Assembly (NCBI GenBank): GCA_963777505.1
Contig: CAVZQN010000007.1
Location: 138,452 to 202,451, forward strand
Direction of reading: 5' to 3'
DNA: 64,000 nt
From: an uncultured bacterium
Lineage (GTDB): Bacteria > Acidobacteriota > HRBIN11 > JAKEFK01
The position numbers and the translations under genes were made by a program. Of the stretch, positions 9,459 to 60,827 are shown in pieces. The notes under the pieces were generated by a model. It was not told the DNA's origin. It made no database searches and was given only the letters and a program-made list of their open reading frames with translations. The first letter of the stretch is position 1. Every line of letters begins with the position of its first letter.

Positions 9459-10011
9459 ATGCAGATCAAGCGTCTGGAGCCAAGCTCCATTCAACAAAAG
9501 TCAACAACAGAAAACACAGAAACGAACTCTTCATCCTCAGTCAATTTGAACTCCGGAGTTGGCAACATAAAAGATGGTTTTGAACCACTAAAAGTAGATG
9601 AAGGATCAACGAGACCCTTAAAGCTCAATTTTGTAAAACAGCAAATGACTGCTTATATGAGTTCGAAAATAGCCACAAAGCGCAAACGATCCGATGTTTG
9701 CTGTCATGGACGAGTACTTAAAAATGAATGACAATGAAATTGGTTCGGCTCACGGCTCACGTGATATTTTTCAAACAGTAGATACCGACGCAACGTCTGA
9801 GCTTACACTTGGCCAAACCTCCCGCCTGAATCGAGGAAACGCAAGAAACCACGTTGATACGCAAGGCAAACCATTAAACGAACTAAAACAATCCGCAAGC
9901 GACATCAAAGAAACGCTACTTCAGAATGCCGGCCTTGATGAAGACAAAAAGAACGTAATGAACCGTTATGAAAGAATTTCTTTGTGGATCAGAGCCCGAG
10001 AAGACGATTAG
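9459..10011 (+). CDS. Putative type III-like export substrate, split by one extra A near 9677
   Basis: MQIKRLEPSS S/T/N-rich N-terminus, motif A GVGNIKDGFE; removing one A joins ORFs 9459..9731 and 9694..10011 (ATSANDPMFAVMDEYLKM...LDEDKK). Confidence 0.55.
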
Positions 10012-10091
10012 ACAGAGAGAAAAGATAGTGTGGTTGGAAACTACTAATCACCGGGTTTAGGAAAGCGCCGTAACTCCGTGGTAACTTTATC

Positions 10092-13075
10092 TTGATGCAA
10101 AAGGCGACAATCCTTTTGATTCACTTCTTGCTCTACTGCAGTTCTACCTTTGCCCTGGATCCGAACAAAGCCATTACTCAATATGTACGCGATTCCTGGC
10201 AAGTCGAAAATGGTCTTCCACAAAACTCCGCCATGTGCATTTTACAAACACGCGATGGTTATCTCTGGATTGGAACAGAAGAAGGGCTCGCGCGTTTTGA
10301 TGGCGTCCGCTTTAAGGTGTTCGACAAATCAAACACTAAAGAAATCGAAGAAAATTGGATGAATGGTCTCGCGCAAGACCGCAATGGAACACTCTGGATT
10401 GGGACTGATGGTGGTGGGTTGCTGCGCTACAAAGCGGGCAAGTTTGAACGTTTTATGCCTAAAGAAATTCATCCAAGGGTTTGGCCAATTTATGAAGATC
10501 GCAAAGGAACTTTGTGGGTTGGCACTCTTGGAGGCGGACTCTTCCAGGTTAAAAACGAAAAGATTCTCCGCAAATACAAAGTCAACGATGGACTCTCCAG
10601 CAATGCAATCTGGTCAATTCTGGAAGATAAGAAAGGAAACCTTTGGATTGGAACAGCGAAAGGTCTAGATCTTTTGAAAAATGGAAAGTTTGTTCAGTAT
10701 GCACCGATTGAACGAGTCGCTGCACTCAATGAAGACCGCGAAGGAAATTTATGGGTTGGGAGTGGCAATGGCGGGCTCTGGCGTTTTCGTGATGGCAAAT
10801 CGGTGATGTTCTCAACAAAGGATGGATTAATTAACAACATCATTGGCAGCATTTTAGAAGATCGCGCCGGAAACGTTTGGATTGGTACAAACGGAGGCGG
10901 CTTGAGCCGGTGGAAAGATGGTTTATTCGAATCGTTTCAACTCACAACCGGCGATCAGAATTTTGCACTTCATGAAGATCGAGAAGGAAGCCTCTGGATT
11001 GGATTAGTTCCAGGAGGTTTGCACCGGCTGGCGGATGGCGCTTTTGTGAGTTTCGGAATCGAAGAAGGACTTCCGGATGATCATGTTTTTTCTGTTCATG
11101 AAGGTAAACAAGAAGGCGTTTGGATTGGAACAAGTGGCGGTGTAGCGCAGAAACAAAAAGACGGCAGCTGGATCAAATATTCCAAGTTGAATGGTCTTTC
11201 CAGCAATTCGATTAGTGCCGTGTTCGAAGATACTGAAGGATTTCTGTGGGTAGGCACTTATGATTCGGGATTGAACCGCTGCAAGAATGGAAAATGCATT
11301 CAGTTCACAAGACAATCCAGTTCGAGTGTGGAACCTGAGAATCCGATCTGGTCTCTTCAAGAGGATCGAGATGGAGGAATGTGGATTGGTACAAATGGAG
11401 CGGGAGTTTCTTCGCTCAAGAATGGAAAATTTACTGACTATTCTACTTCGCAAGGACTTTCCGATATTGATGTGCACGCAATCGTTCAAGATGATGATGG
11501 CAGTCTTTGGTTTGGAACAGAAGGTGGCGGGCTGAATCATCTGAGCAATGGTAAATTTCGCGTTTACACGAGTCGTGATGGACTTTCAAATGATCGGATT
11601 CTCAGCCTTTATAAAGATGCTGAAGGAAATTTGTGGATAGGCACGCGCGAGGGCTTGAATCGTCATTACAAAGGGAAATTTACTCAGTACAGAAAAAAAG
11701 ACGGCCTGTTTGACGATCTTATTCATGGGGTTCGTGAAGACGATCAAGGAAACTTATGGATGACCTGCAATCGTGGTGTTTTCAGGGTTAGCAAAAAAGA
11801 GTTAAACGATTTCGCATTGGGAAACATCACTTCTATACGTTCTATTGTTTATGGAAAACCGGATGGCTTAAGAACATCCGAGTGTATCGGAGCAAATCAG
11901 CCGGGACTTTGGAAATCGCATGATGGCAAGTTGTGGGTTCCAACGATCCGCGGAGTCGGCGTTGTTGATCCTTCTCAACTGATGGCTAATAAAGTTAAAC
12001 CTCCTGTTTATATTGAAGACATTTTGATTGATGATGTTCCGTTCATTAGGACAAAAGGCTCAGGCAATTGAATTTTCGCCAGGAAAGAAGAAATTTGAAT
12101 TTCGTTACACCTCTCTCAGTTTATTAATTCCGCAAAGAGTAAAATTTCGCTACAAGCTGGTGGGTTTTGATCAAGATTGGGTAGAAGCCGGCACAAGGCG
12201 AGTCGCCTATTACACTGGACTCACTCCGGGTCACTATCGTTTCAGTGTGATAGCCAGCAATAACGATGGACTTTGGAATGAGACTGGCGATTCACTTGGT
12301 TTTTATTTAAAGCCATATTTTTATCAGACCTTCTGGTTTTACTTATTGTGCGCCATCGGTCTTTCTTTGGTAGCGGCTGCGATCTACCGTTTCCGGATCA
12401 AGAAAATCAAAGCGGAATTCGATGCAGTGCTGGCTGAACGTACACGGATTGCGCGAGAAATTCATGATACTCTCGCGCAGGGTTTATCTGGAATTGTTTT
12501 GCAGCTTGATGCTGCACAAGAAGTCAAAAGTCAGAAAGAATCCAATTATCATTTTTCAAAAGCCCAGGATCTTGCAAGAAGCAGTTTGAAAGAAGCCCGT
12601 CGAACAATCTGGGCATTGCGACCACAAGAGCTGGAATCATCTGGATTACCAACTGCAATTTCGGAAACTGCAAAAAGAATCATTGCTGATAGCGATCTGC
12701 AATTTCAAATGAATGTGATCGGAGAACCGCGCAAACTTTCACCGCAAGTAGAGGAACAACTTCTTCGCATTTCACAAGAAGCCATCACAAACGTTATGAA
12801 GCATGCCCGCGCAAAAGCTCTTTGGGTCGGAAGTGAAGTATGAATCAAACAAGATCGAGTTGTTGGTGCGGGATGATGGTGTCGGATTCAATCCGGATAC
12901 CGCTTCGACAGATGGGCATTTTGGATTGACTGGCATCAAAGAACGCGTGCATCAAATCAAAGGAGCACTCCGCATTCAGAGTCAACCGGAAACAGGAACC
13001 GAACTACTTCGTTTCTGTGTCTTTGTAGGGGCGGGTAAAAATACGTACTACTCCAAATGTATAATACCGCGTTGA
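10092..13075 (+). CDS. Sensor histidine kinase with beta-propeller (Reg_prop) repeats, Y_Y_Y domain, HisKA_3 and HATPase; split by indels near 12050 and 12830
   Basis: Repeated DxxGxLWIGT; YRFSVIASNNDG; TM; ERTRIAREIHDTLAQ; EAITNVMKHA; DDGVGF..GHFGLTGIKER across three frames. Confidence 0.9.
13025..13036 (+). repeat. Truncated GTAG-type REP-like element
   Basis: GTAGGGGCGGGT, identical to the first 12 nt of the copies at 62310 and 63441. Confidence 0.45.
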
Positions 13076-17256: not shown

Positions 17257-18105
17257 CTATTCGTCAATGTTCTTATGAATGATCGGATTAAACGGAATTG
17301 CAGCTGGGGCGCTCTCCATCTGAGTCAGATCTTGATTGGATAAACCCTCTTGCCAAGCTTGTTCGGCAACAATTGCATCTGTAGTCGTCATCGGATCACG
17401 AGTCTGAGAAGGCTGAGCTTCTTTCGCTTGCCGCTCCTTTTCTTTCGCAATCTGCTCAGAGACGGAATTCATTTCGCTTTGTACTTCTTCCAGCTGTGAA
17501 TTCAATGACTCGATATTGGTGTCTATTTCTCCGATCTTTCGCTCCAGATCAGTCTTGATCTTTTGCAACTTTTGCTTGTATAGAATTTCTAGGCCTACAA
17601 CACCAGGAATGATGGGCAGGTCAGCAATCATCCCAACAATTCCTATTGGTTCCAGTAGTTTACGTAGTTCATCAGTAATCGGTAGATTTGAGTTGATCAT
17701 CTCCATTACTGAGGCAAGGGCTTTTTGAGCTTTTAACTTCTCGCCTTCTGCAACCTCGATTTGTGATTGAAGGTCTGCGCTTCTTTCATTTAGAGCATTC
17801 AAACGGTCCATTAATTGAGGTAAACGATTATCGAGTTGACCTACACTCGGCTCATAAGAACTAAACAGAGAGGAAGCTTCCACGGTAATATCTCGAGTTT
17901 GAGAAGGCTGGATTAAAGATGCACTCTGGGCTTGCTCCTCGAGATAATAGAAATTCTCAGGAGCAGCCTCAAACTGATCTGCGGTTTTCGCAATACCAAA
18001 ATTCGGAATTAGTGGAGTCTGAATTTGGACTGGACTTTCAGTTTGCGGATTTTGATTCACATCGACTATTACAGAATTTGGCATCCTTCTACTGATGAAA
18101 CTCAT
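17257..18105 (-). CDS. Coiled-coil protein with central hydrophobic hairpin (translocator-like), putative export substrate
   Basis: GGAGGAG RBS; motif A GIAKTADQFE; two coiled coils flanking LLEPIGIVGMIADLPIIPGVVGLEILY. Confidence 0.6.
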   Translation of the reverse strand: MSFISRRMPNSVIVDVNQNPQTESPVQIQTPLIPNFGIAKTADQFEAAPENFYYLEEQAQSASLIQPSQTRDITVEASSLFSSYEPSVGQLDNRLPQLMDRLNALNERSADLQSQIEVAEGEKLKAQKALASVMEMINSNLPITDELRKLLEPIGIVGMIADLPIIPGVVGLEILYKQKLQKIKTDLERKIGEIDTNIESLNSQLEEVQSEMNSVSEQIAKEKERQAKEAQPSQTRDPMTTTDAIVAEQAWQEGLSNQDLTQMESAPAAIPFNPIIHKNIDE

Positions 18106-18179
18106 TTGTTCTCCTCCATATTGGTAACGCACAGATTTGCGTTAAACTCCCCAAAAATTCATGTGCATTTGAATGGTGG

Positions 18180-21977: not shown

Positions 21978-22349
21978 TTAACTAGAAAAGAAATGCCAGA
22001 TCTCGGACCACCATGACTTGGATTGCGGATCCTGTTGCGGATTCTTTTGATTCTCCATTTTTGAGGATATATCCTGCATCATCTGCTCTGCTCGAGATGC
22101 TTCTCCCATCATGTCTTGCGCTTGTTGAACATCAGTTCTTTCTGCCAAGTCAGCATCCATATCTTTCTTCAATTCATCGATGAATGTTGTCCCTTGTTCA
22201 ATGGGCCCTAATTGTTGCTTTATCTTTTCAGAAGAATACGATACCCCTCCGATACCAAACTGTGTTTTTGTTTTAGGTTGGCCGCCCAGAATTTCATCAG
22301 ATGCCTGTGGCTGAACAATCTGCGTTCCCGTTCTTATTCCTTTAATCAT
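21978..22349 (-). CDS. Small Q-rich helical protein, putative export substrate
   Basis: GGAGG RBS, MIKGIRTG start, degenerate motif A FGIGGVSYSSE, QMMQDISSKME helix, sigma54 promoter upstream. Confidence 0.6.
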   Translation of the reverse strand: MIKGIRTGTQIVQPQASDEILGGQPKTKTQFGIGGVSYSSEKIKQQLGPIEQGTTFIDELKKDMDADLAERTDVQQAQDMMGEASRAEQMMQDISSKMENQKNPQQDPQSKSWWSEIWHFFSS

Positions 22350-22376: not shown

Positions 22377-22392
22377 AGCAAGGCGCATACCA
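22377..22392 (-). promoter_or_regulatory. sigma54 -24/-12 promoter
   Basis: TGGTATGCGCCTTGCT (GG-N10-GC), about 28 bp upstream of ATG 22349. Confidence 0.75.
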
Positions 22393-27012: not shown

Positions 27013-27582
27013 ATGGCATCGGATGGAATAACAAAACTGATCAAGGTCACACAACAGAAGTCGACAAACGCGAATGAAGAAGCCTTAGAAGGGGCGGCAA
27101 ACCAGCGATCTAATATAGATAAGCAAAAATCGCTAAGAGATGTACAGAAAACCCTCGATTCTTTTACGCAAGACTCCTCGATGTCGCGAGCTGATACCAA
27201 GGCAACTGCGAAACCCGGTGCGAATTTGAATTCAGGCGCCATTGCCTCAGAAGCTTCCGTTTCTAAGCCCGCAAGCTATCTCACAAGATTTTCGAAATCG
27301 GGCTTTGAGAAGTCCAGTCTGTTTTCAGCAGCCGGGTTAGCAAAAAATCTAGTCGATGTTCGCTCCAGCCCCACACATTACGCCAGCGGACTCAATGCCT
27401 TTGTGAAAGCACTCAGGGAAAGGTTTGAGGAATCAACCAAGGACCTTGAAGGAAAGGATAAACTGGGAAATTTTGAGATTAATAACTTGCTGAGCGTTTT
27501 CAATCAAGCGGAAACTCTGGCAGCTAGCACGAAAAAGAAGACCGATGATCAAAACGGTTCTGTAGCCGGGAAGATAGGATGA
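27013..27582 (+). CDS. Putative T3SS-like substrate with needle/translocator-like C-terminal helix
   Basis: AGGAGG RBS; S/T/A-rich N-terminus; C-terminal DKLGNFEINNLLSVFNQAETLAASTKKKTDDQNGSVAGKIG; overlaps chaperone gene by 4 bp. Confidence 0.6.
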   Translation: MASDGITKLIKVTQQKSTNANEEALEGAANQRSNIDKQKSLRDVQKTLDSFTQDSSMSRADTKATAKPGANLNSGAIASEASVSKPASYLTRFSKSGFEKSSLFSAAGLAKNLVDVRSSPTHYASGLNAFVKALRERFEESTKDLEGKDKLGNFEINNLLSVFNQAETLAASTKKKTDDQNGSVAGKIG

Positions 27583-28022
27583 CCGAAAAAAACCAACGAC
27601 AGGAAAAAAACCAGAGCGGTGAACAAGTATCTTCCGAAGCGCTTGCATCGGCCCTTCATTTTGCTCTACTTCATGAAGAGAACGGCCAGTACGATACTGC
27701 TGTAGCCGCTTTCAAATCCCTTCTATTGATGGATCCGTTAAATCCTTATTTTCACGCGATGCTCGGCTCGATCTATCAAAGGCAAGGGGATTATGAAAGC
27801 GCCATCCAACAATACACGGAAGCACTAAAAATATTTCCATCTGATATAGACTCGCTTACCAATCTCGGTGAGATACTGCTGAAGATAGCACAACCCCAAA
27901 GAGCTATACAGTGTTTAAAACAAGCAGTGGAGATAGATACAGAGGGGAATCATCCCTCCGCGAATCGTGCCCGACTTATGTTGTCCCGTTTACTAGAAAC
28001 AGTCGATCCAACTTCCAAGTAA
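27579..28022 (+). CDS. Small TPR protein resembling SycD/LcrH class II T3SS chaperones
   Basis: 147 aa, three TPRs (GQYDTAVAAFKSLLLMDPLNPYFHAMLGSIYQRQG...), terminal HPSANRARLML helix, coupled to upstream substrate-like gene. Confidence 0.65.
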   Translation: MTEKNQRQEKNQSGEQVSSEALASALHFALLHEENGQYDTAVAAFKSLLLMDPLNPYFHAMLGSIYQRQGDYESAIQQYTEALKIFPSDIDSLTNLGEILLKIAQPQRAIQCLKQAVEIDTEGNHPSANRARLMLSRLLETVDPTSK

Positions 28023-38657: not shown

Positions 38658-38673
38658 TGGCAATGAACTTGCT
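38658..38673 (+). promoter_or_regulatory. sigma54 -24/-12 promoter
   Basis: TGGCAATGAACTTGCT (GG-N10-GC), 47 bp upstream of ATG 38721. Confidence 0.8.
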
Positions 38674-38720: not shown

Positions 38721-39239
38721 ATGCAGATCAAAAAATCAAACGGAATTAGTGTTTCTCAAACTATTGAGACTCACAATTCCACGATTGAAAAAAAACCGGG
38801 CGTAAGTGTAGGTATAAGTTCGATTCCAGATTCTTTTGAATCGGCTTCCAGTAAGTCCTCTAACGGAAAAACAAATTCAACATCGTCTGCACATCAGCGA
38901 TTTGAAGTTTCACAGCAACCAAACCTGAAGGACACCCTTTTTAATGCGTTTCGTCAGTCGATTAGCGAAACGAATGAAGACAAAAAGGATTATCTGGAAA
39001 AATTGCAAGAACAGAATCAAACGGCGAACGAACTTAGCGAATATTTGGAAGAACTCACCAATCAATCACAGGATTTGCAGAATAAGGAAAATTCAAAAGG
39101 CTCAGAGCATTCAGAGCCAAAACCTATAGCCGCTACAAATCAAAATGCGGACCTCTTAGAAGCAGTTGCAAGAAGAAATAGTGAATCTAATGACCTTGGC
39201 AGCATTAGAAAGACTTCCAAAAAGGAAGAACGACATTAG
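38721..39239 (+). CDS. Putative T3SS-like export substrate with coiled coil
   Basis: AGGAGG RBS, MQIKKSNGIS start, motif A GISSIPDSFE, FRQSISETNEDKKDYLEKLQEQN coiled coil. Confidence 0.7.
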   Translation: MQIKKSNGISVSQTIETHNSTIEKKPGVSVGISSIPDSFESASSKSSNGKTNSTSSAHQRFEVSQQPNLKDTLFNAFRQSISETNEDKKDYLEKLQEQNQTANELSEYLEELTNQSQDLQNKENSKGSEHSEPKPIAATNQNADLLEAVARRNSESNDLGSIRKTSKKEERH

Positions 39240-41556: not shown

Positions 41557-41590
41557 TTTTTTGTCCTCCTGTTACATATTTGTTTACTCT

Positions 41591-41623: not shown

Positions 41624-41723
41624 GAGAACAAAGACACAAAGAACAAATATTACTTAGATCTTATAAATCCTTTGTGACCTTTATTCTTTGTGGTGATTTC
41701 AATTCTTTCGCACGCAACATCTC

Positions 41724-42984: not shown

Positions 42985-43012
42985 TTTTCCCTCCTGATGC
43001 TTTCAGCACTAA

Positions 43013-43028
43013 AGCAACGCTTATGCCA
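43013..43028 (-). promoter_or_regulatory. sigma54 -24/-12 promoter
   Basis: TGGCATAAGCGTTGCT (GG-N10-GC), 28 bp upstream of ATG 42984. Confidence 0.8.
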
Positions 43029-43183
43029 AGGGCATTGTGCGGGGATCTCGAGGATACGATCAGATCAGAATGCGTTTTGTTTTTTGCGAATCGGCAAAAA
43101 TTTGCCGTTTGGCAAATTCTTGCTTTTACACCCGCTTTTTGAGGGCCAGTTTTTACTGCGAGCTCTAATTCAGTAGCAGGAAC

Positions 43184-43216
43184 GAGCGCGGGCTTAGGTT
43201 TTGTAAGCCCGCGCTC
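43184..43216. repeat. GC-rich inverted repeat (terminator or REP-like)
   Basis: GAGCGCGGGCTTA-GGTTTTG-TAAGCCCGCGCTC just after stop of 43225..44685. Confidence 0.5.
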
Positions 43217-43224
43217 TAAAAAGA

Positions 43225-44685: not shown

Positions 44686-44789
44686 GACCCACCTCCGTTC
44701 TATTTATTTAACCGCAGAAAAACATTTGGATAAAGAACATATTCCAATATATATAAGGAAGCTTTCTGCGCCTTCCTCCCCACAAAGCC

Positions 44790-45130
44790 ACAAAGTTATC
44801 TTTTCTCTGAGGAAGGCAGTAAAACGCGGATCCTTTCTAATGTTACGCAAAAGCGGATCTCCTTTCATTTCGGATAATCCACCATCACGTTGGACGTATG
44901 CGCGTTCCAACCATTCGAATGCTTTATCTGTCTCACCGCGGTAGGAATATACACTAACAACTTGATACGCTGAATCACCTTGGTATTTTTGGATCAGTTC
45001 TGCTAATGCGGCATCCGATTCTTTTTCTTTCCCAAATCGTGATATGCGGATGCGAGGCCCGTCAATCGAAAAGCCATATCTGGTTCACGCTGCATTTCAT
45101 CCAATGCAGCTTGAGGTTTCGACTGCGCCA
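44790..45130 (-). pseudogene. C-terminal TPR relic of a kinase/adenylate-cyclase-TPR family gene (boundaries approximate)
   Basis: SAYQVVSVYSYRGETDKAFEWLERAYVQRDGGLSEMKGDPLLRNIRKDPRF, same family tail as at 32060-32190. Confidence 0.7.
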
Positions 45131-49223: not shown

Positions 49224-49379
49224 GGACTACACTCCCTCACTCTCTTTGGTAACTAGATTATCATACTCTCAGCTTCTTCCCACGATGTATCATTTAAAAT
49301 AGGGATTGAAAACTCTTCGTTAGATGTCTGATTAAGAGTTTCATTGCCTGCTACGACTCACAGGGTACATAATAACTTC

Positions 49380-52300: not shown

Positions 52301-52754
52301 GACAGAGCTGTTACAAGTCAGACAATTCATTTTACAGAACAAATCACCAGCTACTTATCTTGTTGCAGCGAAAGAATCAGCCGGAAAAGCGATTGAGCTC
52401 AACCCATTGCAAAGCGTTGGTTTTCGGATTCGCGCAGAGGTGGATTGTTGGGAAAGTGACTGGTTGATCCGGAACAACAAACCGGCCGCAAATACAATCG
52501 CCTCAGGATTGCAATGGATCGAAAAAGGCAAAAAGCAAAACCCTAAAGATGCAGAAATGATTGCACTGGAAGGTGTCTTTCACCTACTTACCTCAAAGCA
52601 GGCGATAAACAATGAGAAGGCACAAGAAGATGTTGAGAAAGCACTGAATTGCTTTCAGCGTGCTTTTCAGTTGAACCCTCTCATTCAGCAACATTACGAG
52701 CCTCAATACCTCGAAGCGTTAAACTCAAAGGCTACCAACCCAATCGAATCCTAG
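49380..52754 (+). CDS. Membrane Ser/Thr protein kinase with long TPR sensor region
   Basis: GAGGMGEVY, VALK, HRDVKPANIM, DFGLA, GTPYYMAPEQ; TM; TPRs; paralog of 674..4076. Confidence 0.93.
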   Translation: MERSKSGDHPSEPAESNSNLDDGESFQVEDLPTQSGRIDTFQPHQDATKPSHFGRYEIKKRIGAGGMGEVYLAYDTVLKRLVALKLLYGNNPVLVRRFLQEARTQAKVEHESICRVYEASEENGRNFIAMQFINGRTFTNVLAEMNLDQKLLVIRQVADALHAAHVIGLVHRDVKPANIMVEKKEEEVWKPYVLDFGLARENDEPRMTLSGVVMGTPYYMAPEQATEGTPQLDGRTDVYSLGATLYEALSGKTVFEGSTAIEILKKVANDNPVPLHVLNPSIPFEVETIVMKCLEKEPDRRYQTAEALSEDLRRYMNHEPIHARPSTWSYRLSKKAKKHKSIVAIVSIAVLVTVALSGLLFWTQWKARRQAHYAAKFGNEARFIETTVHSIFSAPLHNVRPPLEQLRARIVRMEKEIQNEGALAHGPGYDALGIGYLALRDYGKAKECLDKAWKSGYREPSTAFALGKVYGFHYQKALIQASRLPGKTLQDRAKKEAETLYAKTATTYLNLAQGHVESPNYVEGLIALYNKRYSEALEKAALASVQVSWPYEAKKLQGDVQMALAAEQVQQENFGGAVHSIRQAGKSYAEAIEFARSSEEAYLAYADHWLALLKIQTHAGGSVDTYFKDALQSCERALITDPDGGGGYLCKSNAYFEYGRYQQDRASSSASETLLNSARMAEIAASKRPNVEAISKAGTAYFRIAEHQLATGIDPQPALKNSITSSERALQLDPQYNEAYYNLAAAYFFQGDYELNHGQNPMASLQKVIEIFNSKLEGGAPTEYDRNNIGLAHLDIGIYHLWRGEDPRPHLQKAIEQYRKALEVNPKAVAVSMNLGLAYFFLAAYEIEHGLDPTPNLKEAYRAYDLPTANQDSPHAHTNKASVLLLEAEYKILLKQNPDINLKNAWEQTELALKNNPQLPYALVNSGYAYVLRGQYELMMKKDAMSSIQEARKILKQAIGLDPTFSESHSLLAETELLQVRQFILQNKSPATYLVAAKESAGKAIELNPLQSVGFRIRAEVDCWESDWLIRNNKPAANTIASGLQWIEKGKKQNPKDAEMIALEGVFHLLTSKQAINNEKAQEDVEKALNCFQRAFQLNPLIQQHYEPQYLEALNSKATNPIES

Positions 52755-54044: not shown

Positions 54045-55916
54045 TCAAACTTCCTTTTTTTTTGTCACCGATGAGAGATTGAAATTGCGAACAAGCCTAT
54101 ACAAGTGATTTGTATGCAGACCCAGGCGTGATGCTGCTTCGTTGTAGTTGCCTCCAGCAGTTTCCAATGCTTTTCGAATAAATTCTTTTTTGAAGTTCTG
54201 CAAGGCATCTTGGTATTCGCCTACTACAGTCGCATCTGAAGGGCGGCTCTCTAACAGAAGCTCTGGCAAATCGTCGGGATGAATCGTCTCTGAGGACCCG
54301 AGAACGATTGCACGTTCCATTGCATTTTGTAATTCGCGGATATTACCTGGCCAATTATAAGTTCGCAAAATTGTTTGCGCCTCCGGCGAAATTGCCTGGA
54401 AGGGGTGTCCTGCTTTAGTAGAAAAGTGGCTTGCGAAATAGCGAGCAAGCAGCAAGATATCTTCTTCCATCTCTCGAAGCGCTGGCATTTTCAGAGATAC
54501 CACGTTGAGTCTGTAAAAAAGATCGCTACGGAACGTTCCATCTTGCATGCATTTCCGCAGATCACGGTTGGTGGCTGCAAAAATACGAACATCTATCTTT
54601 GCCGGCCGAGACGACCCCACACGTTCTATCTGTTTTTCTTCAAGGACTCGTAAAACTTTTGCCTGCAACGTCAACGGCAATTCTGCAACTTCATCAAAGA
54701 ATAAAGTACCGCCTGACGCAGTTTCTATCTTGCCTTTCTTGGAGAAAATCGCTCCTTCGAAAGCGCCTTTCTCATATCCAAAAAGCTCACTCTCAAGTAG
54801 ATGATTCGGAATGGCCGCCCAATTAATTGTTACAAATGGATGGTTGGCACGCGAACTCTTGGAGTGAATCGTACGCGCTGCAAGCTCCTTTCCCGTTCCG
54901 CTTTCACCCGTGATTAATACACATGTATCTGTTCGTGATGTTTTTTCAATTACTTCACGAACTTTCCGGATTGCAGAACTCTCTCCAATAATCGGACTCT
55001 TCATCAGTAATTCTTTCTGAAGTACATCATTTTTGATGCGAGCAATCTCAAGGTCCTGAAGATTTTTCAGCGCAGGCGCTACAATCGTTGCAATTGAGCC
55101 GGCAAGACGAAGGTCTTCCTCGCGAAAAATTGCTGATCGACTGACAGTATCAAGATAGACAATACCCAAGGACGAATCATTCAATATAAATGGTACACAC
55201 AAGACCGATTGTGGGCGGTATTCGAGCAAGCTATCAGATTGGACCGGCGATTCAGCTTGCCCAATATCATTCAACAGGAGAGCTGTTTTCTCATCGCATA
55301 CTCGATTTGCGATCGTCCGGCTTACTCCTGCAGAATTTTTTTCGCCAGTTTTCGTTTTTGAAGCCAGCAACCGATAATCATCTACCGTATTCACAAGCAC
55401 GGAGCCTCTTTGTGCTGGAATGGAGGCAAATAGCAGATCCAAAAGCTTTTCTCCGAATTCTTCCAGCTTTTGCACCGATTGAACGGATTGACTGATGCGA
55501 AGCAGTAGACTCAATTCGCTAGTATTATTTGTTTCAAATGGAGTCGGTTGCCTGTGCATTGGAAGTGACAATGTAACTTTTGCGTTCAAGAGATCTTCAT
55601 CCGTACCATTTGATGGTGTCTCTTCTTCCTGCAAGGCGATCACAAATACAGAGCTTCCGATCTCAATTCGGTCTCCATGTTCCAGCAGACATTCTCCGAC
55701 CGGAAGTTCGTTCACAAAAATTCCATTCCGGCTTTGCAGATCGCAGATTTTATAGGCGTCAATCTCTTTGCGGATGACGCAATGACGACGCGATAATAGT
55801 AAGTCCTTGATGGGAACGGAATTCGTACGATCGCGTCCGATCGTCATCTCTGACTCACCCAGCGGAATTCTCTTGCCCTGTAATGGGCCCATCAAGGCCA
55901 CTAGAAAAGGAATCAT
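54045..55916 (-). CDS. FHA-GAF-AAA+-HTH sigma54-type enhancer-binding protein with GAFEGA loop
   Basis: FHA (IGR..SRRH..DLQSRNG), GAF (SVLCVP), GESGTGKE, ESELFGYEKGAFEGA, FRSDLFYRL, WPGNIREL, Fis HTH. Confidence 0.93.
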   Translation of the reverse strand: MIPFLVALMGPLQGKRIPLGESEMTIGRDRTNSVPIKDLLLSRRHCVIRKEIDAYKICDLQSRNGIFVNELPVGECLLEHGDRIEIGSSVFVIALQEEETPSNGTDEDLLNAKVTLSLPMHRQPTPFETNNTSELSLLLRISQSVQSVQKLEEFGEKLLDLLFASIPAQRGSVLVNTVDDYRLLASKTKTGEKNSAGVSRTIANRVCDEKTALLLNDIGQAESPVQSDSLLEYRPQSVLCVPFILNDSSLGIVYLDTVSRSAIFREEDLRLAGSIATIVAPALKNLQDLEIARIKNDVLQKELLMKSPIIGESSAIRKVREVIEKTSRTDTCVLITGESGTGKELAARTIHSKSSRANHPFVTINWAAIPNHLLESELFGYEKGAFEGAIFSKKGKIETASGGTLFFDEVAELPLTLQAKVLRVLEEKQIERVGSSRPAKIDVRIFAATNRDLRKCMQDGTFRSDLFYRLNVVSLKMPALREMEEDILLLARYFASHFSTKAGHPFQAISPEAQTILRTYNWPGNIRELQNAMERAIVLGSSETIHPDDLPELLLESRPSDATVVGEYQDALQNFKKEFIRKALETAGGNYNEAASRLGLHTNHLYRLVRNFNLSSVTKKKEV

Positions 55917-56057
55917 GATCTTGATTTTAGCATGACGAAAATCATCAAAGATCCATTCGGATAATCAAGAGATCATAAAGGCACTCTGCGCATAAACTAA
56001 CTCGCTAACGCGCGCGTCTAATTCCTGCAATAATAAACGTGCTTACGAGAGGAAATT

Positions 56058-57791
56058 ATGCATTTCAACAACTCACAACACAGAAGTCGGACGAGGATAG
56101 CTGTTGTTATTGTGCTGCTTGTGTCGAACCTCTACCAATTCGCCGAAAGTAATGATGTGTTTCAAGCGCAGTTGGAGGCTCCTTCGGATGGAGTGCAGTT
56201 TTACCGGAAGCTGCAACAGGCACAACAGCTATACGAGAAAGAGAAGTGGGCTGAGGCAGAGCCTATATATAAGGAGCTCGTTGCTGAGTATTCCTTGAAT
56301 GGCACGATCTGGGGACAGCTCGCAAAAACATTACGGCTCCAGGGTAAATACGCCGATGCGTTGAATGCATACGAAAGAGTGATCAATCTTCAAGGCCCCG
56401 GACTTCCCTTCAGCGGACGTTATTGGATTGCAGTCTGTCATGCGAATCTCGGTCATACCGATGCGGCTCTGAATACTTTGCAGCAAATGGTTTTTCAAGA
56501 AGCAGAGTTGATGCGCCCCGAATTGCTAACGGACTCAAACTTCGCAAGCTTGAAAGATAATCCCCGATTCCAAGAAATCGCTGGAAAGCAGGATGTTTCA
56601 AAAGTCGAGCGTGTCGAAGGATGGCGCGGGGATATTGATTACCTTGCAGAAGAGTTAAAGCGCAACAATCCTGCAGGCATGCCGATCCCCGAAGAATTCT
56701 TCAAGCGTCAGCGGGAGTTGAAGGAACAAGTTCCACAACTGAATGATTGGGAGATCATTGCAGGAATGGGACGCATGTTGAATTCGCTGAATCGCGGTCA
56801 CACAGCTTTGTGGCTTGGGGTGCCCGGCTCAAAGTTGGATTTCAGACCGATGCCTGTTCGTTTCTATATTTTCCCGGAGGGAATTTTTGTAACAGAAGGT
56901 TTCCAGGGAAATGAAAATCTCGCAGGAGCGAAGGTCCTGAAATTCGGAAACACTTCTGCAGCCGAGGCGTTCCGGCGCGCAAGAGCCGCGCGCAGCGCGG
57001 AAAGTGCAATGGAGGATGTGTGGACAGTACCATATATGCTGGAGTTGCCTGCCGTGTTGAAAGGATTGGGAATGATTCAGAACGCAGAAAGTGCAGAGCT
57101 CACATTACAGATGCCGGATGGTACTATCGTTGAAAAAAAACTCGGTTTGATGGATCCCGAGCGGAAACGCAAACTCAACCCTCCACCGCGAGTTGAACCA
57201 CCACTCTTCCTACGCAACATGAATGAGATGCACTGGTTTCAGCCTATGCCCGAACATAGAGCTATCTACGTCCAGGTCAATAACATCATGCCTGACAAAG
57301 ACGAAACTCTGCCTCAGTTCGGTCTCACACTCAGACGTGCAATCCAAGAACATAAGCCGGACAACATCATATTGGACATTCGTCACAATAACGGTGGAAA
57401 TACATTTACTTACGTTGAGTTGCTGCGAACACTGACTGCCTTCAGCACTTTGGAAGGACACACCGTCTATGCTCTTATCGGCCGGAATGTATATTCAGCG
57501 GCAGCCAATTTCTCCACAGACTTGGAGCGCGTTGTGCGCCCCATCTTCGTAGGAGAACCCACAAGCCAGATCGGAAACCAGTGGGGTGACGAAAGTCAGT
57601 ATGTTCTCCCTTACAGCAAGCAGATCGGATCCTTTTCAGGACTGCGCTGGCAAATCAGCCACCCATGGGACCAGCGCCATTCACTCGTTCCCCAAGTCCC
57701 TGTCCAGCTGACAGCAAAAGCATACTTTAGCGGCCGGGATCCAGCTCTAGATGCCGTGCTCGGGATGATCAAAGAACAAAATCAGAAATAG
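56058..57791 (+). CDS. Exported TPR + S41-like peptidase
   Basis: N-terminal TPRs; IILDIRHNNGGN, LIGRNVYSAA, FVGEPT, RDPALDA. Confidence 0.78.
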   Translation: MHFNNSQHRSRTRIAVVIVLLVSNLYQFAESNDVFQAQLEAPSDGVQFYRKLQQAQQLYEKEKWAEAEPIYKELVAEYSLNGTIWGQLAKTLRLQGKYADALNAYERVINLQGPGLPFSGRYWIAVCHANLGHTDAALNTLQQMVFQEAELMRPELLTDSNFASLKDNPRFQEIAGKQDVSKVERVEGWRGDIDYLAEELKRNNPAGMPIPEEFFKRQRELKEQVPQLNDWEIIAGMGRMLNSLNRGHTALWLGVPGSKLDFRPMPVRFYIFPEGIFVTEGFQGNENLAGAKVLKFGNTSAAEAFRRARAARSAESAMEDVWTVPYMLELPAVLKGLGMIQNAESAELTLQMPDGTIVEKKLGLMDPERKRKLNPPPRVEPPLFLRNMNEMHWFQPMPEHRAIYVQVNNIMPDKDETLPQFGLTLRRAIQEHKPDNIILDIRHNNGGNTFTYVELLRTLTAFSTLEGHTVYALIGRNVYSAAANFSTDLERVVRPIFVGEPTSQIGNQWGDESQYVLPYSKQIGSFSGLRWQISHPWDQRHSLVPQVPVQLTAKAYFSGRDPALDAVLGMIKEQNQK

Positions 57792-57892
57792 TATTTTGCT
57801 TTTTTGTGTGATCTGGGGAAATTTGTTCAAACAGAGTGTACTCACTGCCCTTCTACTCTTTCCACTAACGTACATGCCTGGTCATACATTAA

Positions 57893-58555
57893 CTATTGAA
57901 GCGCTTTCATTGCCAAACGGTGTACGTCGGGATCAGTCACAGCCATTAGCCGTTTTTTAACGACACGCGAAAAGTATTCACGTTCAGTCTTATTTAGTCT
58001 TTCGCCACGAACCTTTTTCATCAAAAGATCCCTTTGTTTTGGTGAAAAGAGTAACGACAAGAAATGTTCTTGACGTAAATCTTCACTTAAGTCCTGCTTC
58101 TCTTTTGCTCGTTTCTCGCGGACACCAAGCATGAAATAATTTAGGAAAGCCGTTTTCAGCCTTTCTGGATGAAGACTCGCGCGGCGAGTATTAACATCAC
58201 GAAGATTCGCTCGGACTCGATTCAGCATCCGATGTTGCTTTAGATGTTTCGTAAGCTCTTCATACAAATCATATTCTCCGTAGGATTGGAGAAAATCTAA
58301 TGTGTAAGCTGTCAATGACAGTAATAGTTGCTTCCAATGTTTGTTAGGAAGTAGCTTGGATACTTTACTAAGATTTAATCTCTCATCACCTCTTAGCAAA
58401 AAGCCTGCAAGCAGAACAGGAAATCCTTCCTGGACACGGCCGTCCTCACTCTTAACAACTTGCGCAAGCAGATTATTCGGATCTGTTTTTGTTGCACGAA
58501 CGAGCGAGTAGCCGGATTCTTCCAGGTCTTTTAATAGTTTGTCAGTATCTTCCAT
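57893..58555 (-). CDS. Hypothetical protein, possibly an orphan TA-associated regulator
   Basis: C-terminal LFSPKQRDLL...LNKTEREYFSRVVKKRL HTH-like; self-operator-like palindromes upstream. Confidence 0.6.
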   Translation of the reverse strand: MEDTDKLLKDLEESGYSLVRATKTDPNNLLAQVVKSEDGRVQEGFPVLLAGFLLRGDERLNLSKVSKLLPNKHWKQLLLSLTAYTLDFLQSYGEYDLYEELTKHLKQHRMLNRVRANLRDVNTRRASLHPERLKTAFLNYFMLGVREKRAKEKQDLSEDLRQEHFLSLLFSPKQRDLLMKKVRGERLNKTEREYFSRVVKKRLMAVTDPDVHRLAMKALQ

Positions 58556-58585
58556 GTTATGTTTTTAATTTATTTACACATAAGT

Positions 58586-58645
58586 CATACAAAATATTGT
58601 ATGTTTTCGTACAATTTATTGTATTATTTTATACAATTTTGTCAA
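58586..58645 (-). promoter_or_regulatory. sigma70 promoter overlapped by two palindromes
   Basis: TTGACA-N16-TACAAT on minus strand; CATACAA-AATA-TTGTATG and TACAAT-TT-ATTGTA. Confidence 0.6.
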
Positions 58646-58668
58646 GAATATTGAGTCGGGTTGGATTC

Positions 58669-58928
58669 TTATCTCGAGAAGTCGATTGTCCGAGCCATCT
58701 CTATATAACGGCAGAGAGCGTTTGCCAATTTCATCTGACGTGGAGTTTTGCATTCGGGTTCAAACAACTTTGGATTTGCAACAAGAATGCAAACACAACG
58801 CGCGCGGGAGGTTGCAACATTGAAACGGTTGAGACTGTACAGAAATTCCATGCCGCGCGGAGCTTCTTCAGGTGAAGAAGTGGTCATCGAATAAATCACA
58901 ACAGGAGCTTCCTGCCCTTAAATTTATC
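58669..58928 (-). pseudogene. Duplicated 3' end of the TM0106-like helicase gene
   Basis: GQEAPVVIYSMTTSSPEEAPRGMEFLYSLNRFNVATSRARC...LANALCRY identical in protein to 61129..61374 but with synonymous changes and a different tail (IEMARTIDFSR). Confidence 0.9.
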
Positions 58929-59115
58929 TTTCGCATTCGTTTCTAGTACTAATCACTTGATCGCTCAAATAAAGACGCGTGGTGAAATCGCAAGCTTCCC
59001 TATTCTGCCAATTATGCTGTTGGAGATGCGATTGTCTTAAGAGGGTTCGATACCGCACCCGTCAAATTTCCATCCACGTTTACAGTGAATCCCAATCTTC
59101 GAGACGCTTAAGAAG

Positions 59116-59141
59116 ATGGGGCGCCGGTTCCAGGCGCCCAT
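59116..59141. terminator. Hairpin downstream of 59157..60827
   Basis: GGGCGCC-GGTTCCA-GGCGCCC stem-loop. Confidence 0.55.
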
Positions 59142-59156
59142 ATTTTTGCAGGCATG

Positions 59157-60827
59157 TCATTTTTTCTTCTTGGAAACTTTGTCCTGTTCTTCTTCCTCAT
59201 CATCTTTACTTTTTGAGCCTAACCCGATGAGCGGCGTTGCTCCTACGTTGATATTCATATCAGAAGGATCGCCTCCGCGAGTCGGCCCAGTGTAGCCATG
59301 ATTCGGAGAATCGGGACCAAAATCAACATCTCCACCACTCTGCGGTGACTCTGTAAATGTTCCGCCGCTGCCGCCAAACTGCACTGTCGTGTCGGGCTGC
59401 GCGATTAAGCCGTATTTTCCCAACTCCCCAAGATGGATTTGCGGGTCGTTGACAATCTGCCCTTTCGGCTCCGCCTGTTCCGCCGGGTCTACGTCCTCGC
59501 CGCCCTTATGCGGACCGATGGCGCGAAGGTCATTAACGAACTTCTGACTCTGTTGTTTGAGGGTATCCGGAATGTTGCCGTCGTAGTCTTCATAACCACC
59601 AGGGTCCTTGGTAGTCGCCCCAGTGCTCTGTCCACTCTCCTCCGTGCTCTGTCCATTCTGCGCAGCTTCCTTTTCTGCTTTCTTTGCTGCTCCTTTCTTG
59701 CGTCCTTCCTCGGCTTTTGCCTCTGTCTCCTCTTTGGTGTCCGTACCATCAGTGGCATCTGCAATGTCCTCACCCAACGATTGGCCGGAGACTGCTTCGT
59801 ACAATTTGTCAATGGCAGTTCCAACTGCAACCCCAGCTACCGCCGCGACTGCAACTCCTCCAACGGCCGCCACTGTTGCGGCACCCTCTGCCGCTACTGC
59901 TGCAGTTGCTGCTTCGGCAGCCGCTGCCTGCGCTGCCTCCGCACCTAAGCCAACGACTCGTGCGGCCCAAGCCGCTTGCGATGCCGCTTCTGCCGCCGCA
60001 ACTGCTGGTGCTGCAGCTGAAGCCGCCGCGGCTGGGATCCCGTATGCTCCTGCCCCGAATGCAGCCGAAGCAGCAAGACCGGCATTTTTGAGCGTCCCAT
60101 CCGCAATGATTTCTTTTCCGTACGATGGCGCATTGTTTACATGCTCGTTTGCAGAATCCAGAAGCGCGTTGCCTGTTGCGCCCTCTCTTAGTTCCTCTTT
60201 CGTCCTTGCCTGTCCCTTTATTCCTGGTAGCAATTCGGAGGAGTCACGTTGAGGAATGGAAAAATCTCCAGACACGAGCTGATTTACTACTTCGGAAACG
60301 TCAGGCCCTGTCGCTGCGCTTTGCTCTGGCGAGCCTTGTAAGCCCCGTTGAGAATTGAATTCTTGCTGCGGATCTTTTTTAGAATCGGATTTACCTCCCG
60401 GCTTCTTTTGATCTTTCTGATTTTCATAATTGGCTTTGCCATCGATCATCTGGTACGCAGAGCGATTGATATCAAAATTTGCATTACCTGCCAGCCGTGT
60501 TTCATCAAAACTTAACTCTTTGGAGCCTTTTTGTTCACTCGTTTTTGTCGATTGTGAATCGCGATTCTTAATAGCAGCATCGGCAGGCAGCATCGACTCC
60601 GAGGCAACTTTCAACTTTAGTCCTCCGGTCAGACCTGTCTTCTTGCGAGAGGCCTCGGATTGCTTGCTTTGATCCTCTTTGATGCTAGCCTTCGGCTTTT
60701 CAAAGCCATCCTTGATCTGGCTGATTCCTGATTCGACAGCCTTCGCCGTCTCTACTTTGTCAGCACTATTGTTCTGAGCGCCCGAAACCTTTTGAAGCAC
60801 TTCTCCTGATGTGTCCTTTATACGCAT
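59157..60827 (-). CDS. Putative translocator/pore-forming export substrate with about 95-aa Ala/Gly/Val-rich hydrophobic core
   Basis: GGAGG RBS, MRIKDTSGE start, motif A GISQIKDGFE, AGLAASAAFGAGAYGIPAAA...VAAVAGVAVGTAIDK, acidic/disordered flanks. Confidence 0.72.
   Translation of the reverse strand: MRIKDTSGEVLQKVSGAQNNSADKVETAKAVESGISQIKDGFEKPKASIKEDQSKQSEASRKKTGLTGGLKLKVASESMLPADAAIKNRDSQSTKTSEQKGSKELSFDETRLAGNANFDINRSAYQMIDGKANYENQKDQKKPGGKSDSKKDPQQEFNSQRGLQGSPEQSAATGPDVSEVVNQLVSGDFSIPQRDSSELLPGIKGQARTKEELREGATGNALLDSANEHVNNAPSYGKEIIADGTLKNAGLAASAAFGAGAYGIPAAAASAAAPAVAAAEAASQAAWAARVVGLGAEAAQAAAAEAATAAVAAEGAATVAAVGGVAVAAVAGVAVGTAIDKLYEAVSGQSLGEDIADATDGTDTKEETEAKAEEGRKKGAAKKAEKEAAQNGQSTEESGQSTGATTKDPGGYEDYDGNIPDTLKQQSQKFVNDLRAIGPHKGGEDVDPAEQAEPKGQIVNDPQIHLGELGKYGLIAQPDTTVQFGGSGGTFTESPQSGGDVDFGPDSPNHGYTGPTRGGDPSDMNINVGATPLIGLGSKSKDDEEEEQDKVSKKKK

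Follow-up and report, generated by a model that had tools for sequence, protein, structure and literature searches.

Motif-carrying genes in the window

The window analysed here is a stretch of 64,000 nucleotides from an assembly of an uncultured member of the Acidobacteriota. In four of its proteins the motif G[IV]xxxxDxFE begins at residues 31–37, and a fifth protein contains a degenerate version (Table 1). All five motif strings listed in the initial annotation were found, the coordinates given there being those of the gene starts and not of the motifs. That several of the proteins begin with M[QR]IK was borne out as well, the N-termini encoded by the genes starting at 9459, 18105, 38721, 60827 and 22349 reading MQIK, MSFI, MQIK, MRIK and MIKG, respectively. 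The four proteins with the full motif (carriers 1 to 4) had been called otherwise unrelated, and BLASTP indeed detected no mutual similarity among them past the motif at E ≤ 0.01. For the fifth protein, the string GIGGVSYSSE is present as described, but membership is doubtful: it was missed by both profiles and has only its start, linker, G-I pair and sigma-54 site in common with the carriers.

The gene for carrier 1 is frameshifted just past residue 71 (about nt 9671), its halves forming ORFs 9459–9731 and 9694–10011; an unbroken counterpart of 183 aa (P0016) is present in a near-identical relative. Pfam matches of carrier 2 were of the coiled-coil type only, carrier 3 has a 98% identical copy on another contig (C13) of the same assembly, and paralogues of carrier 4 form a tandem array in the congener G001. 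By BLASTP, each of the four window carriers has paralogues elsewhere. Searches of the carriers against Pfam and NCBIfam returned coiled-coil noise and LysM but no known family. Of the words of window positions 56000–62000, no more than 6% were matched in any of 8 sequencing runs.

Table 1. Carriers and associated features of the window, with positions counted from its first nucleotide
Feature	Positions	Strand	Remarks
Carrier 1	9459..10011	+	Subfamily E; MQIKRL...
Motif GVGNIKDGFE	9555-9584	+	Carrier 1 (gene start 9459); first motif residue 33
Carrier 2	17257..18105	-	Subfamily A; MSFISRR...; 282 aa; coiled-coil body
Hydrophobic hairpin	17578-17658	-	Carrier 2
Second subfamily motif TVEASSLF	17863-17886	-	Carrier 2
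Motif GIAKTADQFE	17968-17997	-	Carrier 2 (gene start 18105); first motif residue 37
Conserved upstream element TGGGGA-N15-GTGCGTTA	18125..18153	-	19 nt before ATG of carrier 2
Doubtful member	21978..22349	-	MIKGIR...; 123 aa
Degenerate motif GIGGVSYSSE	22227-22256	-	Doubtful member (gene start 22349); first motif residue 32
Sigma-54-type site TGGTATGCGCCTTGC	22378..22392	-	Upstream of doubtful member
Two-gene unit	27013..28022	+	Genes overlap by 4 nt
189-aa protein	27013-27582	+	Uncharacterised
SycD/LcrH-like protein	27579-28022	+	Three TPRs; 147 aa
Sigma-54-type site TGGCAATGAACTTGC	38658..38672	+	49 nt before ATG of carrier 3
Carrier 3	38721..39239	+	Subfamily B; MQIKK...; 172 aa
Motif GISSIPDSFE	38811-38840	+	Carrier 3 (gene start 38721); first motif residue 31
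FHA-GAF-AAA+ sigma-54 enhancer-binding protein	54045..55916	-	Sigma54_activat, 4.5e-68
Carrier 4	59157..60827	-	MRIK...; 556 aa
Ala/Gly-rich hydrophobic stretch	59811-60083	-	Carrier 4
Motif GISQIKDGFE	60699-60728	-	Carrier 4 (gene start 60827); first motif residue 34
Sigma-54-type site TGGCACACCGTTTGC	60867..60881	-	Upstream of carrier 4

Architecture and genomic frequency of the N-terminal module

The motif is the last of three parts of an N-terminal module, consisting of i) a small hydrophobic residue at position 3–4 and then a basic one (MxIK/R, MSFIRR), ii) a linker of ~30 residues, poor in Leu, rich in Ser, Thr, Asn, Gln and Pro and probably unfolded, and iii) G[IV]xxxxDxFE, for which the consensus is GIAxxxDSFE with a Phe invariant in 17/17 and 22/22 aligned copies. 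Ile, Val, Leu or Phe occupies position 3 or 4 in all 22 carriers, as compared with 48% of 4,866 other genes; over residues 2–30, Ser, Thr, Asn, Gln and Pro account for 47% of carrier residues vs 25% in other genes, and Leu for 3% vs 12%. The similar distance of the motif from the start, as initially noted in the window, holds for the family: counted from SD-supported starts, the motif of 18 of 20 members begins 28–39 residues past the Met. The two outliers have spacings of 45 and 72 residues, the second with an inserted LysM domain, which indicates that a longer spacer is tolerated.

The carrier N-termini lack the hydrophobic h-region of a Sec/Tat signal: when the best 10-residue Kyte-Doolittle mean is taken over segments that begin within residues 1–25, its median is 0.32 for carriers and 1.36 for other genes. 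Neither the LysM-bearing member nor those with a hydrophobic hairpin have a Sec-type signal. [quoted passage not shown] An acidic C-terminal tail is present in 10 of the 22, vs 5.6% of other genes.

The motif proved larger in scale than the window set first reported. The six-frame translation of the genome (10,455,682 residues) contains the strict pattern G[IV]xxxxDxFE 8 times, each time near an ORF start, while the mean expected by chance is 0.60 matches, with 0.17 at residues 25–80 (30 residue shuffles of 24,375 ORFs). With the relaxed pattern G[IV]x4DxF[ED], 19 matches were observed vs 5.5 expected from the same shuffles, 16 of them at residues 25–80 (1.27 expected), and among the 41 occurrences of D[SG]FE in 4,888 called genes, 12 begin at residues 30–39. 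The positions are non-random genome-wide, and the strict matches are not housekeeping proteins: all 8 are carriers, each of them an orphan that shares this N-terminal architecture. A profile search identified 18 carriers, and the addition of copies with a degenerate DxFE brings the number to about 25.

Modularity, selection and phyletic range

Past the motif, similarity detectable by BLASTP is confined to 5 small groups, which together with 6 singletons make about 11 unrelated bodies; in the relative G003, the subfamily-A N-terminus is fused to yet other bodies. The initial annotation had regarded the class as structural or translocon-like coiled-coil proteins. This description suits only some of them, such as the 282-aa carrier, in which a coiled coil is combined with a hydrophobic hairpin, and the 556-aa carrier, which has an Ala/Gly-rich hydrophobic stretch; the majority are short and polar, and one bears LysM.

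Among 22 copies, synonymous codons are free to vary at the G, I, D, F, E and S positions. Selection is therefore acting at the level of the peptide, and an RNA-level explanation of the motif was rejected.

The module had 11 matches in 1.84 billion representative proteins and 14 among 7,997 scored candidates from a collection of 5.77 billion clusters, all of them from kin, and it is restricted to a single family-level lineage. Five T3SS-bearing genomes from the other two families of the class gave no match to the motif even at E ≤ 3. Within the lineage, many carriers are recent paralogues, and tandem arrays occur.

Type III secretion genes, SycD-like genes and promoters

A gene for FHIPEP (SctV/FlhA) was found in 11 of 12 genomes of the same class. 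In the congener G001 the T3SS cluster is complete and of the non-flagellar type; its SctV scores 750.6 bits against TIGR01399 (cut-off 692.25) and is accompanied by SctU, T, S, R, N, L, J and Q, a FliK-C-type SctP and three SycD-like TPR genes; no chaperone of the CesT/Spa15 type was recognised among the proteins of this locus searched with NCBIfam (31) and Pfam (25). The present assembly is 95.86% complete and has the most carriers of the genomes, yet neither FHIPEP nor Bac_export_2 had a match in it, and tblastn with the core genes of the G001 cluster found none of them. The missing T3SS reflects either loss or failed binning, between which the non-synteny of this assembly and G001 around the T3SS island does not separate. 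Three secretins are encoded here, one of the PilQ type and two ambiguous, none being clearly SctC. Pfam searches of the assembly for other machines (Phage_sheath_1, VipB, the encapsulin Linocin_M18 and CagE_TrbE_VirB) gave no match. The T3SS clusters of G001, G003 and G004 contain no carrier.

The SycD/LcrH-like protein of the window has TIGR02552 as its best family match, covering 8–134 of 136 positions at 69.6 bits, below the cut-off of 104.8, and the best 60 matches of a TPR profile to PDB sequences were generic TPR proteins only. Its pairing with the 189-aa protein recurs in relatives, also within their T3SS clusters, and in G001 paralogues 36–43% identical to it lie 2–8 kb from sctV; neither the window nor the assembly has a T3SS gene. 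This assembly contains three SycD-like genes, 35–51% identical to the TPR proteins of the G001 T3SS locus and of an operon in G003. That operon consists of three carriers, a 191-aa gene of no known function and a SycD-like gene, with gaps of 7–25 nt and a sigma-54-type site in front. The proteins encoded beside SycD-like genes in the T3SS clusters do not have the motif.

Among 91 proteins around 14 carrier loci, Pfam revealed no recurrent partner, transporter or protease. A Pkinase gene lies within 8 kb of 15 of 26 carriers, vs 24% of other genes shorter than 600 aa, a comparison in which adjacent carriers count as independent. The genome has 108 Pkinase matches, and in G001, in G003 and at two places in this assembly (C7:118–122 kb and C5:3–6 kb) carriers or SycD-like genes have kinases on their flanks.

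Sigma-54-type sites, defined as TGGYA-N6-TTGC (-24/-12), number 6 in the window vs 1.39 expected. Clear sigma-54 promoters had been claimed for three motif genes, and the sites located here precede the genes that start at 22349, 38721 and 60827, the first being that of the doubtful member. Among 21 listed members, 6 have such a site within 200 nt upstream, vs about 0.06 expected by our own arithmetic from the 154 sites in the genome. A further site lies immediately upstream of a SycD-like gene on contig C5 of this assembly, and a subset of carriers and a SycD-like gene are thus under a common sigma-54 promoter type. The element preceding carrier 2, which other subfamily-A genes also have, is not of the sigma-54 type. 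The genome encodes rpoN, and the enhancer-binding protein of the window is a possible activator of the sigma-54 carriers.

Comparison with known N-terminal signals

The module appears similar in kind, not in sequence, to two known signals, the flagellar gate-recognition motif (GRM) and the chaperone-binding sequence of class IB effectors (CCBD). In the flagellar system, as described in PMC8983047, the GRM (FxxxPhi) and an N-terminal hydrophobic signal of rod and hook subunits dock on FlhB-C. Common to both systems are a bipartite N-terminal signal with a small hydrophobic residue at positions 2–5, a polar, unstructured spacer of some 30 residues for which there is a minimum length, and an essential Phe in a short motif at about residues 36–45, each substrate carrying its own signal (PMC8983047). 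The carriers show this arrangement in the 28–39-residue spacing of 18/20 members and in the I/V/L/F at positions 3–4 of 22/22. In contrast, their sequence is G[IV]xxxxDxFE and not FxxxPhi, the residue four places after the invariant Phe being Val or Leu in 2/22 and Ala in 3/22 copies. Moreover, none of the carriers is an axial flagellar protein, the machine of the lineage is non-flagellar, and SctU-C is a putative docking site.

The CCBD of class IB (Spa15/InvB) effectors has the pattern (LMIF)1xxx(IV)5xx(IV)8x(N)10 within residues 25–45 (PMC3280449). Like the present motif, it is a defined 10-residue sequence at these residues in unrelated proteins, marks one client set and can serve as a positional pattern for genome-wide searches. 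Unlike the CCBD pattern, which according to PMC3280449 also matches housekeeping proteins, the strict motif selects only orphans here. The consensus GIAxxxDSFE does not follow the CCBD sequence, and the T3SS locus of G001 contains no recognised class IB chaperone.

Class II chaperones (SycD/LcrH/IpgC) recognise N-terminal peptides of translocators, of the P/VxLxxP type, and usually have two or three clients. The present system resembles theirs in that genes for small three-TPR proteins lie next to those for hydrophobic or coiled-coil proteins, putative T3SS substrates, and in that two carrier types have translocator-like hydrophobic segments; it differs in that the motif is not P/VxLxxP and in that the carriers are about 20 diverse, mostly polar proteins. 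MIX is an N-terminal marker motif of the effectors of another secretion system. Like MIX and prePAAR, the latter a marker of T6SS effectors (PMC7773334), the module is a short conserved N-terminal motif on proteins with unrelated bodies, but it differs from them in sequence and context, and no T6SS sheath gene is present in this assembly.

Interpretation of the module

We tentatively favour, at less than an even chance, the explanation of a bipartite T3SS signal that is defined by its sequence, with the motif as the half that docks. By analogy with flagellar rod and hook subunits, DxFE would dock the unfolded N-terminus onto a cytoplasmic portion of the export machinery, in all likelihood the C-terminal domain of SctU; the linker would then allow the hydrophobic N-terminal cap to reach the SctRST-V gate and open it, and the variable body could thus be exported without a chaperone of its own. 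A subset of carriers would be transcribed from sigma-54 promoters along with SycD-like chaperone genes. This proposal has to contend with the carrier-richest genome having no T3SS core gene, with the absence of carriers from the T3SS clusters and of the motif from the SycD-like partners there, with the T3SS-bearing genomes of two other families that do not have the motif, with the departure from FxxxPhi, and with a SycD-like assignment below the NCBIfam cut-off and generic TPR proteins among the best PDB matches. A motif for export-gate recognition or chaperone binding is what the initial annotation had proposed, assuming a T3SS context. The relatives' T3SS, the G003 operon and the common sigma-54 promoters lend that proposal partial support, but the assembly here has no T3SS core gene and the clusters examined in relatives contain no carrier. 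Taken together, the readings in which the module is a T3SS signal of some kind are slightly more probable than not.

One of these, which we consider unlikely, has the carriers as T3SS substrates and the motif as the binding sequence of a multi-cargo chaperone, either a SycD-like TPR protein or an unrecognised class I chaperone, as the CCBD is for Spa15/InvB effectors. The position is that at which the CCBD marks the clients of one chaperone class in unrelated effectors (PMC3280449), the G003 operon places a SycD-like gene two genes behind three carriers, and one of the three SycD-like genes in this assembly has a carrier-like sigma-54 promoter; against this, the sequence is unlike the CCBD, the G001 cluster has no CesT/Spa15-type chaperone, and the expected clients beside SycD-like genes are without the motif. 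Chaperone binding would also need no tight distance from the N-terminus, and short, polar, probably unfolded proteins, as most carriers are, would have little need for a chaperone. A role outside secretion is distinctly unlikely, namely that a linear motif docks disordered proteins on a cytoplasmic hub (e.g. the TPRs of Ser/Thr kinases or small TPR proteins), the carriers being kinase substrates or adaptors in sigma-54/ECF programmes. The missing T3SS and the kinases near carriers and SycD-like genes are consistent with such a hub, but kinases are very common in this genome and the proximity figures are subject to the non-independence noted above. Furthermore, a motif for a soluble partner would need neither a fixed N-terminal distance nor a co-varying hydrophobic residue at position 3–4, and the LysM-bearing and hydrophobic-hairpin members suggest a location beyond the cytoplasm.

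In a further reading, which needs no T3SS, the module would direct the carriers into some other route of export or assembly, as yet unrecognised, or would mark a propeptide cleavage site. Intact carriers most numerous in a genome without T3SS genes, the absence of a Sec-like h-region, the LysM domain behind the N-terminal cap and the frequent acidic C-terminal tails point in this direction, but the assembly offers no candidate machine among those searched for and the 14 carrier loci no recurrent transporter or protease; we hold this to be very unlikely. Least probable is that there is no common mechanism and the module is simply the part that has changed most slowly since a single ancestral orphan gene multiplied in the lineage. 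Confinement to one family-level clade, recent paralogues and tandem arrays would all be expected of such a remnant. However, only three residues are invariant and a few more nearly so, all at one position, and all else, synonymous sites included, has diverged, which is the pattern of a functional site, and the LysM domain was inserted within the module with both ends kept.

In the most far-reaching reading, which we regard as doubtful, the module would be a complete export address defined by sequence (cap, measured polar spacer and DxFE dock) and would label the entire effector set of an early-branching, flagellum-like injectisome. It would then be the injectisome counterpart of the flagellar GRM, and this one of the rare type III repertoires that can be read from sequence alone. 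As the carrier-richest genome is without a T3SS, the address may instead serve a secretion or sorting route not yet described.

Effector discovery relies on statistical predictors, and the crisp, fixed-position 10-residue motif found here selects about 25 orphans and hardly anything else. Were it an export address, candidate substrates of a functionally uncharacterised environmental injectisome would be at hand, one could see in a natural setting whether the flagellar logic of docking before opening the gate extends to injectisomes, and protein-delivery studies in harmless hosts would gain a candidate portable tag. If it is not an export address, it would be a lineage-specific linear motif, under strong selection and tied to sigma-54, whose partner is worth finding.

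Motif copies and carrier genes in the window

All five motif strings listed in the initial annotation are present in the window, although the coordinates attached to them there are the starts of the carrier genes and not the motif positions. The similar distance from the start was borne out, the first motif residue falling at 31–37 in every copy. The five genes, with Shine-Dalgarno-supported starts, begin with MQIK, MSFI, MQIK, MRIK and MIKG; the M[QR]IK start ascribed to several carriers thus holds for three, and the other two have MSFI and MIKG. Apart from coiled-coil noise, the carriers matched no Pfam or NCBIfam family.

Positions of features in the window and elsewhere (window coordinates unless a contig or locus is named)
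Feature	Position	Strand	Remarks
GVGNIKDGFE	9555-9584	+	gene start 9459; first motif residue 33
GIAKTADQFE	17968-17997	-	gene start 18105; first motif residue 37
GISSIPDSFE	38811-38840	+	gene start 38721; first motif residue 31
GISQIKDGFE	60699-60728	-	gene start 60827; first motif residue 34
GIGGVSYSSE (degenerate)	22227-22256	-	gene start 22349; first motif residue 32
Hydrophobic hairpin, in a coiled-coil body	17578-17658		carrier body type
Ala/Gly-rich hydrophobic stretch	59811-60083		carrier body type
Fourth sigma-54-type site	43014-43028	-	before 392-aa orphan gene 41724-42902 (-)
TGGGGA-N14-15-GTGCGTTA, or GTGCGTTA then SD + ATG	18125-18153	-
same element	C4:574325; C7:93557; C7:138229; C8:393276; C7:84679
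SycD-like genes, this genome	27579-28022; C7:117676-118158; C5:6134-6661
SctQ-like gene with N-terminal FHA domain	L044:11595-13094		congener G001

The first carrier (9459–10011) is split by a frameshift right after residue 71 (about nt 9671), and its intact 183-aa counterpart, P0016, is present in a near-identical relative; either the gene is a pseudogene or the assembly contains an indel. Other genes are cut into adjacent ORFs at 10092–13075, 19071–21894, 31020–31972 and 35167–38184. A Reg_prop/Y_Y_Y/HisKA_3/HATPase_c sensor kinase is found in three pieces, a Ser/Thr kinase in two, and two M4 peptidases in two each, with an intact 1046-aa peptidase copy on contig C13 (L005:5924–9064); such splits suggest assembly indel errors, or decay. 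The third carrier, a 624-aa protein and an M4 peptidase (about 38500–44900) recur nearly identically on C13, an 18-kb contig, and this repeated segment probably broke the assembly. An ADOP-family duplicated permease lies on contig C4 (L004:257–3013; TIGR03434, 871.9 bits).

Genome-wide occurrence and architecture of the module

The genome (G000; 5.23 Mb in 14 contigs, 44% G+C), in which the window corresponds to C7:138452–202451, is rated 95.86% complete. In its 10,455,682 six-frame residues the strict pattern G[IV]..[IVT].D.FE gave 8 matches, each near an ORF start, against a chance mean of 0.60, or 0.17 at residues 25–80 (30 residue shuffles, 24,375 ORFs). For the relaxed pattern G[IV]x4DxF[ED], 19 matches compare with an expectation of 5.5, and the 16 at residues 25–80 with one of 1.27. 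In a set of 4,888 genes from rough gene calling, 12 of the 41 occurrences of D[SG]FE begin at residues 30–39, with at most 2 in every other 10-residue bin, and D.FE occurs 19 times in that bin against 2–10 in the others. The genome-wide, positionally constrained search proposed by the initial annotation thus came out positive.

A profile of the motif with its flanks retrieved 15 ORFs at E < 2e-5, plus several weaker ones. Degenerate-core copies (SNSDSFK, VQDKFEGP, GIAESESKFET, VQESFDQF, VKDKFEEV and AAKDTFETP), drawn from genes behind sigma-54 sites and from the positional list, bring the number of carriers to about 25. Among the 20 members whose starts are supported, 18 have the motif 28–39 residues past the Met; in the other two it lies at 45 and at 72, and in the latter an inserted LysM domain (PF01476, 3e-09) separates the N-terminal cap from the motif. 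All 22 carriers have I, V, L or F at position 3 or 4, compared with 48% of 4,866 other genes, and K or R usually follows. S, T, N, Q and P make up 47% of carrier residues 2–30 and Leu 3%, against 25% and 12% in other genes, and no hydrophobic h-region was found in the carrier N-termini. Synonymous codons within the motif vary freely among copies, and selection therefore acts at the peptide level.

One N-terminal module stands on about eleven unrelated bodies: in BLASTP, the post-motif regions show similarity only inside five small groups (A to E), and six are singletons. Group A consists of the 282-aa window protein plus two more, and group B of the 172-aa window protein, its C13 copy and one other; the four firm window carriers, previously described as otherwise unrelated, do fall in different groups. 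In subfamily A the common N-terminal domain is longer and contains a second motif, TV[DE]ASS[LIM]F; in G003, from another genus of the family, this domain is fused to quite different bodies. Further body types include LysM and many short polar proteins. A second common feature is an acidic C-terminus, with at least two acidic residues among the last four (DDD, DDDDD, EE) in 10 of 22 carriers against 5.6% of other genes; examples are window 9694–10011 (...AREDD) and 17257 (...NIDE), with others at L016, L014 and L004, and kin copies likewise end acidic.

Upstream elements and gene neighbourhoods

The sigma-54-type sequence TGGYA-N6-TTGC occurs 154 times in G000 (both strands) and 6 times in the window (1.39 expected); of the 21 members listed, 6 have such a site no more than 200 nt upstream, where by our arithmetic about 0.06 would be expected. 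Three of the window sites stand before carriers, in keeping with the three sigma-54 promoters predicted earlier. The genome has rpoN, and an FHA-GAF enhancer-binding protein is encoded at 54045–55916; many TonB-receptor-like genes also appear to be driven by such sites. Paralogues of the orphan gene behind the fourth site, on C9, C12 and C13, start MFKVGINSAPRI, a polar N-terminus without the motif, and in the window copy the first 30 or so codons seem out of frame. Two unassigned sites at 25672 and 25742 (+) are located, on the opposite strand, upstream of a gene at 25881–26936 (-) that weakly matches MvdD-type ATP-grasp proteins (E 1.4e-4) and adjoins the pair formed by a SycD-like TPR gene and gene X.

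The GTGCGTTA element is found upstream of six genes, three of them subfamily-A carriers and three encoding other proteins with polar N-termini; one of the six lies beside an ECF sigma gene (L011). The element may be a promoter of the ECF type or part of the 5' UTR.

On contig C295 of G003, three tandem carriers are followed by a gene for a 191-aa protein and then by a SycD-like one (TIGR02552, 67.6 bits), with intergenic gaps of 7–25 nt and a sigma-54-type site in front. A perfect site also directly precedes the C5 SycD-like gene of G000, and another is located some 300 nt upstream of two paired genes in the G001 locus.

Secretion machinery

A type III secretion system (T3SS) was at first set aside because G000 matched neither FHIPEP (FlhA/SctV) nor Bac_export_2 (FlhB/SctU), and was taken up again because relatives encode one. 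FHIPEP was found in 11 of 12 same-class genomes, the one without it being 73% complete. In G001 the FHIPEP gene lies inside a complete non-flagellar T3SS cluster (SctV: TIGR01399, 750.6 bits, cut-off 692.25) that also encodes SctU, T, S, R, N, L and J, an FHA-fused SctQ, FliJ-like and FliO-like proteins, a FliK-C-type SctP, needle/rod-like small proteins, a sigma-28-like factor and three SycD/LcrH-like TPR proteins. The 40 kb covered by the analysis showed no secretin gene, and this injectisome is flagellum-like. FliR/FliQ/FliI models score slightly higher here than Sct models.

With the G001 cluster proteins, tblastn found no core gene in G000, and because the two genomes are not syntenic around the cluster, its loss and its failed binning look alike. 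The three SycD-like proteins of G000 share 35–51% identity with the TPRs of the G001 locus and the G003 operon; for the window protein (27579–28022) SycD is the top NCBIfam assignment, but its 69.6 bits fall short of the cut-off of 104.8, and a PDB sequence search gave generic TPR proteins among its first 60 matches.

Distribution

The profile of alignment A1 gave 18 matches in G000 (E <= 0.01), 4 in G001 and 2 in G003, and none in a sample of 28 further genomes from the family, class and phylum. A second alignment, A2, at a loose threshold gave about 6 credible copies in G001, 5 in G003, 1 in G005, the variant GVASVADSLE in G004 and no copy in G002; five genomes representing the remaining two families of the class had no match at E <= 3. 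Among 1,835,955,588 representative proteins, 11 matched at E <= 0.001, all of this lineage, at residues 9–51 in nine and 56–87 in the two LysM forms. When 5.77 billion clusters were searched with word seeds, 14 of the 7,997 scored candidates matched, all kin. No model of Pfam (24,736) or NCBIfam (18,950), the collections to which this statement is limited, covers the module.

Possible function of the module

Flagellar rod/hook subunits are described as having a hydrophobic signal at residues 2–5 and a gate-recognition motif (GRM; 36FLTLL40 in FlgD) docking on FlhB-C (PMC8983047). The module is alike in position, bipartite layout and measured spacer but differs in sequence, only 2 of 22 copies having V or L at F+4. 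By this analogy the favoured, though tentative, reading is a bipartite type III export signal, whose DxFE element would dock the carrier on the export gate. [quoted passage not shown]

The G003 operon and the sigma-54-type sites tie the carriers to the T3SS context; against such a tie, no carrier was found inside the T3SS clusters of G001, G003 and G004, nor is the motif present in the neighbours of the SycD-like genes. A cytoplasmic docking motif independent of a T3SS has some support from the proximity of kinase genes. G000 has 108 Pkinase matches (in the window, for example, 714–4076 and 49344–52754), and TPR-bearing Ser/Thr kinases are encoded close to carriers and SycD-like genes at a higher frequency than near other genes. 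Of 26 carriers, 15 are within 8 kb of a Ser/Thr kinase gene against 24% of other genes under 600 aa, although these counts are not independent. The module could also serve a different export route or mark a site of processing; contractile-sheath, T6SS, encapsulin and VirB4 genes were looked for in G000 and none was found. Mere paralogy is a further reading.

For most type III effectors no common motif has been found, according to a review (PMC8047123). We infer that the module is an N-terminal address motif, a variant without the GRM or CCBD sequence, which would depend on a T3SS.
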